Source: Syntrophales bacterium
GTDB lineage: Bacteria > Desulfobacterota > Syntrophia > Syntrophales > UBA2210
Assembly: GCA_963662405.2 (NCBI GenBank)
Contig: CAXXKT010000001.1
Coordinates: forward strand, 2,656,001 to 2,720,000
Length of the DNA: 64,000 nucleotides
Direction: 5' to 3'
Shown here one piece after another: positions 50,308 to 54,590 of the stretch. Both the position numbers and the translations under genes were made by a program. Under the pieces are notes generated by a model, which saw only the letters and a list, made by a program, of their open reading frames with translations, was not told the origin of the DNA and did not search any database. Every line of letters starts with the position of its first letter. The stretch's first letter is position 1.

Positions 50308-51630
50308 ATGAAAAATCCCCGTTCGGATATCAGGGCGATCTTCGATGCGGGACTCGCAGCCGCGGATCCCGGCGAGGCGATCAGGCGCGCCGTCAGACGT
50401 GAAGGAGAACGACTGGAAATCCACGGCGGGACATACGAACTGGACGCCTTTGACCGGATCCTGGTGGTCGGTACCGGCAAGGCCGCCGCGAGCATGGCCG
50501 CCGCGCTTGAACATATGCTGGGGGAGCGCATAACCAGGGGTACCATCACCACGAAGTATGGATATGGATCACCCCTGAGGATCGTCTCCATTGCCGAGGC
50601 GGGACATCCGATTCCTGACGAGGCGGGGGTCCGTGGGTGCCGACGCATCCTCGATCTCCTGCACACTGCCGGCGAGCGGGATCTCGTCCTGTGTCTGATA
50701 TCGGGCGGAGGGTCTGCGCTCATGCCGTTCCCTGCCGATGGTATTTCTCTCCAGGACAAGCAGGAGACGACGCAGGCCCTCCTGGACTGCGGGGCCGATA
50801 TCCATGAGATCAACACCATCCGGAAACATATCTCGGGGATCAAGGGGGGGCAGCTGGCACGGGCCGCCTTCCCGGCGACCCTCGTGACGCTTGTCCTGTC
50901 CGACGTGATCGGCGATGACCTCGACGTGATCGCCTCCGGTCCCACGGTTCCCGACCGGAGCACCTTTGCCGACTGCATCGGGATCGCGGATCGGTACGGG
51001 CTTGCCGACACGCTCCCCCTATCAGTGATCACCTATCTGAGAGATGGGGCAGCGGGGAGACATCCCGAAACGCCCAAGCCTTCCGATCCGGTCTTTGAGA
51101 GGACCGGTGCATTCGTTATCGGCAGCGCTTCCCTGTCACTCGATGCGGCACACGAGAAGGCCCGTGCCCTGGGATACAGCGCGGTCATTCTCTCCTCGTC
51201 GATTGAGGGAGAGACGAGAGACGCCGCCCTGTTTCACGTTGCCGTTGCCCGGGAGATACGGAAATCAGGGAACCCGGTACCGGTGCCGGGGTGTATCATC
51301 TCGGGGGGAGAGACGACGGTCACCATCCGCGGTGACGGTCTCGGGGGACGGAATATGGAATTTGTCCTGGCCGCCGGCATTGCATTGGATGGACTCAATG
51401 GTATCACCGTCTTGAGTGGCGGGACGGATGGAACGGATGGTCCCACCGACGCGGCGGGGGCCGTCGCGGACGATTCAACGGTGCAAAGGGCTCGAGAAGA
51501 GGGGGCTGACGCCGAGCACTACCTCGAAAGCAACGACTCTTATCACTTCTTCGACAAGATCGGGGATCTCCTGAAAACCGGCCCCACCATGACGAACGTC
51601 ATGGATCTGCGGATCTTCCTGGTCACATAG
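50308..51630 (+). CDS. Glycerate kinase type 2 / hydroxypyruvate reductase (TtuD/MOFRL)
   Basis: GTGKAA, ISGGGSAL, IASGPT, GGETTV, GGRN, TDGTDG, TMTNVMD. Confidence 0.93.
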   Translation: MKNPRSDIRAIFDAGLAAADPGEAIRRAVRREGERLEIHGGTYELDAFDRILVVGTGKAAASMAAALEHMLGERITRGTITTKYGYGSPLRIVSIAEAGHPIPDEAGVRGCRRILDLLHTAGERDLVLCLISGGGSALMPFPADGISLQDKQETTQALLDCGADIHEINTIRKHISGIKGGQLARAAFPATLVTLVLSDVIGDDLDVIASGPTVPDRSTFADCIGIADRYGLADTLPLSVITYLRDGAAGRHPETPKPSDPVFERTGAFVIGSASLSLDAAHEKARALGYSAVILSSSIEGETRDAALFHVAVAREIRKSGNPVPVPGCIISGGETTVTIRGDGLGGRNMEFVLAAGIALDGLNGITVLSGGTDGTDGPTDAAGAVADDSTVQRAREEGADAEHYLESNDSYHFFDKIGDLLKTGPTMTNVMDLRIFLVT

Positions 51631-51805
51631 CCGGGCAGGGAAATCTCGACCGTGAGTTTCTGGTAAGAGGGTGCTGTCCTCCTGATAAGAACCTGTGCGG
51701 ATTTGATTGGTCTTGAGCATTCTTATTTAGTACATCTCCAACTGCTCAAAATCGTTTCAGGAGAAAATCGATGATTGCTGATTGGAAGTTTCTCGACAAA
51801 ATATC

Positions 51806-51955
51806 TTGACAATACATGATCATAGAGTTAGCTATATGGCAATTTTGATCTTTACGATTTTTCTGTTTGTGAATGACGTTAACCGTGGGGTGATTATGGT
51901 ATTCTTATCTTGAAGCCTTGTTTTTCGAATAGAGAAAAAGGCTTTTTGTTTTTTG
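51806..51955 (+). promoter_or_regulatory. Promoter-leader-terminator element, copy 3
   Basis: TTGACAATAC...CATAGAGTTA (shared with copy 2)...GATTATGG...AAGCCTTGTTTTTC/GAGAAAAAGGCTT + T tract. Confidence 0.7.
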
Positions 51956-52014
51956 TGAGAGGGGTAATCAAGGGAATCCATCCATAATCTGCAATCGAAT
52001 ACAGAGGAAAAACG

Positions 52015-53094
52015 ATGAAGAATAAACGAACAATATGGCTTTTTATCCTGATACTGCTTCTGTTGACAGGATGTGGAATATCCTTTGCCGGTCAGTTCCC
52101 CGATACCGGGCAGACCACCTGTTATGATGCCGCGGGGAATGTGATTCCCTGTCCCCAGCCGGGCGAGGCTTTCTACGGCCAGGATGCTCAGTGTGCGGGG
52201 CCCGCCCGGTCGTACATAAAGCTGGGGGAAAACGGCGTTCAGCTGCCCGATACCGCCACCCAGGCCGGCGGCTGGATTATGATCAAGGACAACGTCACCG
52301 GCCTTGTCTGGGAGATCAAAACCGACGATGAGTCCATTCGCGACAGGGATAACACATATAATTGGTACGACTCAAGTAATGTTTTTATTGTCACATTGAA
52401 CGCACAGAACTTTGGGGGCTATTCCGACTGGCGGATGCCGACTGTGAAGGAGTTATCCTCACTGGTCAACAGCGGCACATATGATCCGGCCATAGACACC
52501 GCGTGGTTTCCCCACACGAGATGGTCTCGCTATTGGTCGTCTACTCCCGACGCCGGCAATGTGAGCAAAGCGTGGCGGGTGGAGTTCGGCAGCGGCTACG
52601 TCTACTCCCTCGGCGATAAGTATGATTGTTATTCTGTGCGCGCCGTTCGCGGAGAGTCGTCGAGCTCTTCCGGCTGTCTCGTAGACAACGAGGACGGAAC
52701 AGTAACCGACACGGAAACCGGACTGATGTGGCAGAAAGCGACGGCGCCCGGCGAATACACCTGGCAAGAGGCGTTGGCATATGCCGCAGGACTCACACTG
52801 GGGGGATATTCCGACTGGCGGCTGCCGAACCGCAATGAACAGCAGACCCTGATAGACTATTCCCGATACGATCCGGCCATCGATCCATTACTGCAGGAGG
52901 ACACGGAGACCAACTATTGGTTGTCTACTACCGACGCCTATTCTACGGACGACGCGTGGTGCGTGTACTTCTCCACCGGCTCCGTCGCCAGCTACGATAA
53001 GTCGAATAGTAGTTGTGTGCGCGCCGTTCGTGATTGGAATCCGTCAAAGGCCATGCCCTGGATACCGCTGCTGTTGCTTAAAAATCCAGAATAA
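52015..53094 (+). CDS. Exported protein with two DUF1566/Lcl (CLec-fold) domains
   Basis: PDTGQT.CYD; D..TGL.W, GGYSDWR.P, YWSST, AW.V.F, VRAVR twice; C-terminus AMPWIPLLLL. Confidence 0.88.
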   Translation: MKNKRTIWLFILILLLLTGCGISFAGQFPDTGQTTCYDAAGNVIPCPQPGEAFYGQDAQCAGPARSYIKLGENGVQLPDTATQAGGWIMIKDNVTGLVWEIKTDDESIRDRDNTYNWYDSSNVFIVTLNAQNFGGYSDWRMPTVKELSSLVNSGTYDPAIDTAWFPHTRWSRYWSSTPDAGNVSKAWRVEFGSGYVYSLGDKYDCYSVRAVRGESSSSSGCLVDNEDGTVTDTETGLMWQKATAPGEYTWQEALAYAAGLTLGGYSDWRLPNRNEQQTLIDYSRYDPAIDPLLQEDTETNYWLSTTDAYSTDDAWCVYFSTGSVASYDKSNSSCVRAVRDWNPSKAMPWIPLLLLKNPE

Positions 53095-53243
53095 TGATCA
53101 CTTCAGTTGGGTCGTGGTAATTGATAATATATTCTTGGTCCTTTTTGATGATTGCCGTATGTAATATAATATTACGATTGTAATACCTGAAAACGACACT
53201 TCGGGAAGAAAGGTGTCAGCATTCAACCAACAACCCTGTCTCC

Positions 53244-54590
53244 CTATCCCATAACCTCCTTCAGAACATCTTCGACCAGTGTCCGTATAGTGTTGAGCCT
53301 CTCTTCCGTCTTTGCCTCGAAGCGCAGGACCAGGACGGGCTGGGTGTTGGAGGCACGGACGAGTCCCCAGCCATCATCGAACCGGACGCGCACGCCGTCA
53401 ATGTCGATCACGTCATACTCAGCCGCAAACCGCTCCTTGACCCGCTCGACGACATCAAACTTGATGTCGTCGGGGCAGTCGATTCGTATCTCGGGGGTAC
53501 TGAAGGTCCGGGGGACATCCGCGAGGAGTTCGCTGGGTGTCAGGTTCGTCAGAGAGAGGATCTCGAGGAGGCGCGCCGATGCGTATATGGCGTCGTCATA
53601 GCCGAAATAGCGATCCGCGAAGAAGATATGCCCGCTCATCTCCCCCGCCAGCAGGGCTAGTTCTTCCTTCATCTTTCCCTTGATCAGTGAATGTCCCGCC
53701 TTCCACATGATCCCTCGTCCCCCTTTTTGAGCGATGTCGTCGTAGAGCGTCTGGGAACATTTGACCTCCCCGATGATGGTGGCGCCGGGATTCTCTTGCA
53801 GGATGGCACGTGAAAAGAGGAGGAGGAGCTCATCCCCCCGGACGATCTCGCCCTTGTCCGTGACGACGCCGATCCGATCCGCGTCGCCGTCGAATGCGAT
53901 GCCGATATCCGCCATTTCCTCCCTCACCAGGTCGATGAGACCGGTGAGGTTTTCCTCGACCGTCGGATCGGGGAAATGGTTGGGGAAGCGGCCGTCCATC
54001 TCACAGTAGAGGGGCATGATGGAACAGCCGAACCGTTGCAGGAGGGGGACGGTAAAGAATCCTCCCACGCCGTTTCCTCCGTCGATAACTACCTTCAGGC
54101 CTTCGCGTATCGTGACGCCCTTGAAGAGGTGATCCTGATAGGCCTGGGCGACGTTTTCCTGATGGAACGATCCCTCGCCCGATGCGTACCGGTCTTTCTC
54201 CATGATTGTTCGCAGTTCCTGTATGTCGTCCCCGTAGATGGTGTCCGGACCGATGCAAATCTTGAATCCATTGAACTCCGGGGGGTTGTGGCTCCCCGTC
54301 ACCATGACGCCGCCGCCGGTGTCCAGGTGCCTGATGGAGTAGTAAAGCATGGGGGTGGCGCACAGGCCGATATCGATCACGTCGATCCCGGCGGCACGAA
54401 GTCCTCCCATGATTGCCCCATGATATTCTTCGGAGCTGAGCCGGCAGTCTCTCCCGACGGTCATGTCCTGAACGCCCCGTTCCTTTCCGTATGTCCCGAT
54501 GGCCCTCCCCAGGTTGTAGACAAAATCGTAATCAAGATCGGCCCCGACGAGCCCCCTGACATCATATTCCCTGAATACCTGCGGATTCAT
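53244..54590 (-). CDS. Phosphomannomutase/phosphoglucomutase
   Basis: FREYDVRG, VTGSHNP, FDGDADR, GEMSGH, RASNT. Confidence 0.95.
   Translation of the reverse strand: MNPQVFREYDVRGLVGADLDYDFVYNLGRAIGTYGKERGVQDMTVGRDCRLSSEEYHGAIMGGLRAAGIDVIDIGLCATPMLYYSIRHLDTGGGVMVTGSHNPPEFNGFKICIGPDTIYGDDIQELRTIMEKDRYASGEGSFHQENVAQAYQDHLFKGVTIREGLKVVIDGGNGVGGFFTVPLLQRFGCSIMPLYCEMDGRFPNHFPDPTVEENLTGLIDLVREEMADIGIAFDGDADRIGVVTDKGEIVRGDELLLLFSRAILQENPGATIIGEVKCSQTLYDDIAQKGGRGIMWKAGHSLIKGKMKEELALLAGEMSGHIFFADRYFGYDDAIYASARLLEILSLTNLTPSELLADVPRTFSTPEIRIDCPDDIKFDVVERVKERFAAEYDVIDIDGVRVRFDDGWGLVRASNTQPVLVLRFEAKTEERLNTIRTLVEDVLKEVMG

Follow-up and report, generated by a model that had tools for sequence, protein, structure and literature searches.

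We propose that the gene at positions 52015..53094 of the window (the whole 64,000-nucleotide stretch from Syntrophales bacterium analysed here, on whose forward strand all features of the gene lie) is an orphaned target of a diversity-generating retroelement (DGR) that carries two variable repeats, VR1 and VR2, and that arose by fusion of the two targets flanking the accessory gene, template repeat (TR) and reverse transcriptase (RT) core of a Desulfobacterota DGR cassette; we put the probability of this reading at roughly 0.75. It is built on the layout of the cassette in relatives, the adenine bias of the repeats, the separate ancestry of the two domains, the absence of RT, TR and accessory gene from the assembly, the loss of the boundaries behind both repeats, and the excess of variation in VR2.

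In this sediment bacterium, the open reading frame encodes a predicted secreted protein of 359 amino acids, which consists of a predicted signal peptide (52015..52092, called from the sequence, with a weak NCBIfam lipoprotein-signal match below the cut-off), an extension with the motif PDTGQ, two Lcl_C domains of the C-type lectin fold and a short hydrophobic tail. Residue 20 is a cysteine within a lipobox-like LTGC motif in the reference allele only, and a glycine in P0001, P0122 and four sequencing runs. Pfam recognised both Lcl_C stretches (PF07603, formerly DUF1566; E 8.9e-65). According to the domain coordinates and a tree, domain 1 (52279..52650) is of the upstream-target, or PDTGQ, type of the DGR cassette, and domain 2 (52696..53031), for which an AU test was also available, is of the downstream-target type. 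An AlphaFold2 model of residues 27-359 was confident (pLDDT 92.6), and Foldseek matched it to the C-terminal domain of Legionella Lcl (8q4e) and to C-type lectin domains. The Lcl domain is the sole solved relative in sequence (E 0.009) and was matched with a Foldseek probability of 1.00 and a TM score of 0.58 by target. Lcl is described as a trimeric collagen-linked adhesin that binds glycosaminoglycans (PMC11162425), whereas the present protein has both of its domains on a single chain and lacks a collagen region. The Lcl_C/DUF1566 domain, the C-type lectin fold and a VR at the C-terminus of the domain are thus all present, and the predicted features and the model suggest that the protein is exported and displays two ligand-binding tips.

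The gene has a DUF4147/MOFRL gene on one side and a phosphomannomutase-family gene on the other, and stands by itself between them. Directly ahead of it, at 51733-51958, lies a promoter-leader-terminator element of about 230 nucleotides that recurs across the genome (43 stretches at E 0.01 and 24 at 1e-8 by blastn); the consensus two-codon mini-ORF of this element is five codons long in the present copy (ATG GTA TTC TTA TCT TGA). An Rfam search of 51600-53300, leader element included, gave no match, and no RNA run containing the stretch was listed. The genome holds a second Lcl_C gene (C1:1520107-1521222), which is of a distant type and adjoins a paralogue with a common N-terminal region and a different C-terminus.

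An earlier note, made from the letters of the window alone, had described two repeats in this gene, and its description was reproduced in full. The segments at 52531-52650 (VR1, 40 codons) and 52915-53031 (VR2, 39 codons) lie in frame in the ORF, align over 39 codons with one codon gap, and both end in GTGCGCGCCGTTCG; 18 of the aligned codons are identical and 21 differ, the third base being kept in 15 of the latter. Where the two repeats share a degenerate residue they use the same codon in 16 of 17 cases, against 5.8 expected from the codon usage of the genome, a degree of identity reached in 0 of 2,000,000 simulations. The concentration of changes at codon positions 1 and 2 rather than at base 3 also exceeded that in a control taken from the same two domains by protein-guided alignment: the third base was kept at 14/19 differing residues inside the repeats versus 13/48 in the rest of the domains (p 7.5e-4), and synonymous differences were 2/18 inside versus 10/23 outside (p 0.038). 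At the DNA level the two domains also resemble each other ahead of the repeats (63% over 236 nt), so that the repeat marks the end at which two homologous domains are best preserved. Such extended similarity would be expected if an Lcl_C domain had simply been duplicated within the gene, its structural residues being conserved and no DGR playing a part, and Lcl_C also occurs in proteins that are described without reference to a DGR, such as Lcl (PMC11162425). This explanation is highly improbable and, for practical purposes, refuted: codon identity lies far above codon usage, third bases are kept at residues that differ, an AU test rejects the two domains as sisters, and the repeats have closer matches among DGR templates than elsewhere in the genome.

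Such templates were found in relatives. A search with a template pattern returned 20 metagenomic TR loci, in 14 of which an RT frame was recognised by motif. The cassette reads target 1, a gene for a 126-residue accessory protein, a TR in frame at the start of the RT, and target 2; target 1 consists of the PDTGQ extension and an Lcl_C domain, and target 2 of an Lcl_C domain followed by varied cargo, with many different C-terminal cargo domains behind the same GQSG linker. In 15 of the 18 cis VR/TR pairs scored (one further pair was left unparsed), VR and TR show 0-2 non-A mismatches over 73-79 sites; the three exceptions comprise one frameshifted target and two interrupted templates. At ten loci (L091, L094, L095, L097, L099, L102, L103, L104, L107 and L163) the TR lies in frame inside a reading frame that continues into the RT, target 1 and the template are separated by the accessory gene, whose product starts MARYEHLP, and the terminal segment of the RT, FQVGxF/YExY, looks MutS-I-like. 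At three other loci (L162, on G373:C4 near 3725, and L093 and L108 near 2550) the TR is interrupted at one common position by some 260 inserted nucleotides, with CCCCGTGA/TCACGGGG ends and a short frame that resembles a GIY-YIG nuclease; such an insertion would inactivate the DGR.

Measured against these templates, both repeats bear the mark of adenine mutagenesis. Against all 17 templates scored, VR1 and VR2 mismatch at 54-64% of the adenines and at 12-33% of the other bases (p <= 0.004 against each). The template pattern had fixed the first 42 bases, where the comparison is circular; the templates of G280 and G153 came from a search with RTs instead. Against the G280 template, VR1 differs at 22/39 adenines and 10/78 other bases and VR2 at 21/39 and 10/78; the corresponding figures for G153 are 25/42 and 16/75 for VR1, and 23/42 and 13/75 for VR2. 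At the 24 template-A sites, VR1 and VR2 share the base in 10 cases, much like cis VRs that were written independently (39/80). No cognate template of VR1 or VR2 was found, and counts of non-templated bases rest on heterologous templates: by this measure VR1 holds three third bases (in codons AAA, CGG and GAG) that none of 19 templates explains, together with one extra codon, and VR2 holds one such base (TCG>TTG). A template with AAA codons could account for AAA, CGG and GAG in VR1, though none of the 19 has A there; lysine codons are among those that vary in Treponema denticola DGRs (PMC4891356). The proposal of the earlier note that both repeats are of DGR origin is thus supported, by near-identical templates beside RTs in 14 of the 20 loci and by mismatches biased towards adenine.

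To resolve the ancestry of the two domains, a tree was built from the non-VR part of 36 domains, a set without the domains of G032, of G280 and of the tandem gene of G373. Domain 1 falls in a clade supported by 100/100 with the upstream targets L099, L109 and L163 and the first domains of four other tandem genes, and domain 2 sits among downstream targets and second domains. Three short upstream targets are not part of the domain-1 clade, and the deep branches are mostly weak. An AU test on 32 rows, from which four long-branch rows of the 36 had been dropped, rejected domains 1 and 2 as sisters (p-AU 1.3e-55). From this separate ancestry it follows that the two domains are not duplicates of one another. 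In the five tandem genes of the tree the order is always upstream type and then downstream type, and the domain order in the gene is the target order in the cassette.

Relatives show steps in the loss of the cassette core. In L074, targets 1 and 2 enclose a broken accessory gene, whose start is fused to the 3' end of the RT; L083 has kept TR and accessory gene together with no more than the beginning of the RT; L080 carries the two target types without any remnant of the core; and G280 combines a frameshifted target 1, a deleted RT and a truncated target 2. No intermediate with the fusion junction itself was present among the relatives examined, and fusion by deletion of the core is what we infer from this series. 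Tandem genes could also have been assembled by shuffling of DGR-derived domains through the sequence shared behind the VRs, rather than by the collapse of a single cassette, the gene being an orphan otherwise as we propose. The varied cargo behind the common GQSG linker would suit such exchange, as would the tandem gene of G373, which has an extra N-terminal region and coexists with an intact target pair; the constant domain order in five tandem genes and the existence of core-deletion intermediates both speak against it, and we consider shuffling rather improbable.

The G373 gene is also informative about the way in which both repeats of a tandem gene may be written. It lies on another contig than the cassette, and both of its VRs match the TR of the same genome (non-A mismatches 4/81 and 3/81, against 0/81 for the cis targets), so that one template has written both VRs of such a gene at a distance. 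The tandem Lcl_C genes of G552 and G389, as parsed or printed by the pattern, did not match the template of their own genome. No DGR RT was found in the genomes of five other tandem genes (G032, G304, G306, G022 and G003; 79-97% complete), whose genes have 0 to 18 unexplained bases in the first 24 codons, the highest counts being inflated by indels. A weak RT in G003, which is of the same genus, was rejected as a candidate, as it is not DGR-like and has no template nearby.

The genome of the present organism (3.80 Mb in 3 contigs, 100% complete) was searched for each component of a DGR. The absence of RT and template had been noted for the 64-kb window and extends to the rest of the genome. 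The RVT_1 profile gave five matches, namely four equal copies of 479 residues, which we take for mobile group II introns, and one intron-type frame, and DGR RT queries reached at most 19-28% identity to these proteins; no DGR-type RT was found by either means. The one RT of DGR size, with 356 residues, proved to be a group II intron-type frame cut by IS elements; the locus (C1:2043922-2050150) contains nested IS elements, and the C-terminal part of the frame lies 4 kb downstream. In blastn searches with both VRs and 20 real templates, only the VRs themselves were matched. A scan for AAY-rich windows yielded 25 with at least 9 AAY codons in 40, the maximum being 12, and none was template-like; the top window is a short AAC/AAT-rich tandem stretch near position 348550 of C3. 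An accessory (Avd-like) gene was sought with NF033474, which gave no match, and with four accessory proteins of the lineage, which gave a best E of 0.05. The assembly has two or more gaps, its contigs end in repeats, and it is possible that a small DGR element lies within a gap.

In the wider sample, a search for the DGR RT of this lineage was positive for 15 of the 339 genomes from the order and for none of the 37 others from the family; 27 of 61 sampled genomes contain a homologue of the protein. The template pattern was found in 3 of 401 genomes of a phylum sample; a pattern scan of genome contigs gave 13 stretches, all of them VRs, with no intact RT by motif, and the VR pattern had 0 matches in viral contigs. 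NF033474 was tried as a marker of DGRs and discarded: it matched 21 of 61 genomes, always below the cut-off, and among the loci checked only the match in G053 adjoins an RT and a template, which makes it unfit for this use. The earlier note had guessed a template sequence to be looked for beside an RT, and templates almost identical to the guess do exist elsewhere, but none was found in this genome; likewise, its provision that the idea would fall if neither this nor related genomes held a TR and RT holds for the organism's own genome, but not for related organisms of the order.

The 3' boundaries of the repeats also differ from those of live targets. In live targets, NNNGGACAG follows directly after the VR in 14 of the 18 scored cis VRs. 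We take this boundary to be an IMH by analogy with the BPP-1 DGR, in which an IMH element behind the VR is reportedly needed for homing. Behind VR1 (52651..52662) the gene reads GGAGAGTCG instead, an eroded boundary, and three tandem relatives (L073, L085 and L172) still have NNNGGACAG after the first VR. Behind VR2 (53032..53048) the boundary has been replaced: GATTGGAAT follows directly, and the protein reads DWNPSK where the two closest full-length relatives of the same layout read AGQSGP(L/F)GNL. The GGACAG boundary of live targets is thus absent after both repeats, and no indel was seen at the VR2 boundary in runs X3, X4 and X5. A short microhomology deletion was considered as the cause of the loss behind VR2 and rejected, as the sequence of the relatives does not fit it. 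P0002 and P0005 keep AGQSGP after VR2 and then continue into the same C-terminal tail as the present protein, AMPWIPLLLL (53049..53094). The DNA of this tail is 93% identical to the end of an unrelated frame of 1249 amino acids elsewhere in the genome, and a third protein ends in a similar motif; the stretch 53049-53211 resembles C1:321999-322168 over the tail and 120 nt past the stop (82% over 170 nt). No NCBIfam model covers the tail, which, judged by its sequence, is possibly a sorting or anchoring signal.

Variation among strains was examined in sequencing data, eight runs from four studies containing all or part of the stretch. Five sediment runs were compared as low-depth contigs (depth 2-8) rather than raw reads; X6 and X7 have no coverage of the VRs, and coverage holes were not counted as evidence. 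Differences were counted from listed rows, with 39 rows and the differences near contig ends standing outside the list. VR1 shows no listed difference (full coverage in X4, partial in X3), and P0001 and P0122 have the same VR1. In VR2, X3 shows no change, X5 has 6 differing sites and X4 has 3 that are listed, 6 of the 10 differences of the X4 contig being unlisted. Of the 8 distinct listed sites in VR2, 7 are template-A sites (p 0.004, or 0.044 under a stricter null that lets only third positions and A sites vary) and none is synonymous; in X5 four of the changes produce an A, and a double change, GAC>AGC, affects one codon. In P0001, which may be the same strain as X4 and hence not independent, differences fall on 7 of 39 VR2 residues versus 6 of 320 others (p 1e-4).

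It is conceivable, if unlikely, that VR2 is still edited at a low rate and in short patches by a trans-acting DGR, residing in an assembly gap or on a strain-specific mobile element. The template-A sites, the lack of synonymous changes, the double change in one codon and the single unexplained base of VR2 would all agree with this, as would the remote targets known in this lineage from G373 and also published (PMC5758913); unequal activity of VRs within one gene has likewise been described (PMC10907252). The alleles themselves point the other way. VR2 changes stepwise, by single bases, and is not rewritten wholesale: of the 24 non-A bases at template-A sites, 20 survive in X5, against 4.2 expected under rewriting, and within the changed span of X5 8 of 12 survive (P 1e-4); for the short X4 span the probability is 0.056, and a short edited patch is conceivable there. 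The replacements D328E and N331Q in P0001 are unreachable from AAY codons. No DGR-type RT, TR or accessory gene was found in the assembly and no such RT in the 37 family genomes, and each of the three runs with coverage of the 3' boundary lacks it. Of 15 strain differences elsewhere in the gene, 12 are non-synonymous as well, a count that leaves out 8 coding-region rows from contigs of other organisms, and in the reference allele C60, R109 and E226 deviate from the family consensus; selection on the gene may thus be relaxed. The best reading of these alleles is that point mutation likely accounts for the present changes in VR2, selection on the second tip being either relaxed or positive.

For the orphaned fusion gene, the likely course of events would then be as follows. 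One template would have written the VRs of both targets; deletion of the core, or recombination between copies of the two targets, would have brought them together, and read-through of the stop of target 1 would have joined them; the DGR would have been lost afterwards, and the repeats, now former VRs by template comparison and strain alleles, would have drifted, with point mutation in VR2 under relaxed or positive selection. Of the suggestion in the earlier note that the gene is a remote DGR target, current or ancestral, the ancestral half stands; a current role as a target in trans is unsupported, given the lack of RT, TR and accessory gene, the three and one unexplained bases in the repeats, and the loss of both GGACAG boundaries. 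The gene works like a DGR target and descends from one, and it falls outside the class of active targets. A bolder combination seems improbable: cassettes of this DGR lineage would collapse time and again into binding genes with two tips, which then survive the element itself, and in this species the second tip would still be patch-edited in trans although the chromosome lacks RT, template and boundary.

Orphan targets, remote targets and genes with several VRs have each, taken alone, already been published. Treponema denticola strains without a DGR core retain leftover target genes (Nimkulrat et al. 2016, PMC4891356), which resemble the present gene in that their VRs differ from the templates of other strains mostly at adenines, in genomes without RT and TR, and in that the targets are secreted or lipoproteins; they differ from it in that the present gene has two VRs, belongs to the DUF1566/Lcl_C class, combines domains of two target lineages, has no cognate template among those found, and has lost its 3' boundaries. 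Category 'd' targets (CLec2, DUF1566/DUF823/Fib_succ_major) and non-adjacent targets are described by Wu et al. 2018 (PMC5758913); the former share domain family, VR at the C-terminus of the domain and chromosomal setting with the gene, and the latter are defined by a TR in the same genome with essentially only A-to-N differences, and no such TR was found here. Among multi-VR targets, that of Thiohalocapsa PB-PSB1 DGR 4/5 has three tandem CLec domains (Dore et al. 2024, PMC10907252), 31 DGRs have several VRs in one ORF (PMC6642488), and 4 targets have 2 VRs (PMC11661182). Like the present gene, these have tandem CLec domains each with a VR and unequal variation between VRs, but as published they sit in DGR loci with RT and TR, whereas the gene is an orphan whose domains are not duplicates; the PB-PSB1 targets, moreover, are vWA-containing sensors in conflict systems (PMC10907252), unlike the gene described here. 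Fusion of flanking targets as an origin of multi-VR genes was not found in a thin literature search.

The gene belongs to a tandem Lcl_C family with 921 matches at E 1e-40 or better among 7996 candidates scored, and both domain motifs are present in 107 of 122 retrieved proteins. At template-AAY positions, K, E, Q, M and W make up 62 of 1224 residues (5%) in this family, versus 15% overall. The family still bears the codon limits of the template, and DGR surveys that require RT and TR therefore miss such genes; the target tables of published surveys could already list this cassette lineage. Our findings suggest that the gene shows the fate of a DGR target once the retroelement is gone and that the fusion route is a simple origin for genes with several VRs, and the strain alleles of VR2 make continued selection on an abandoned variable tip testable.
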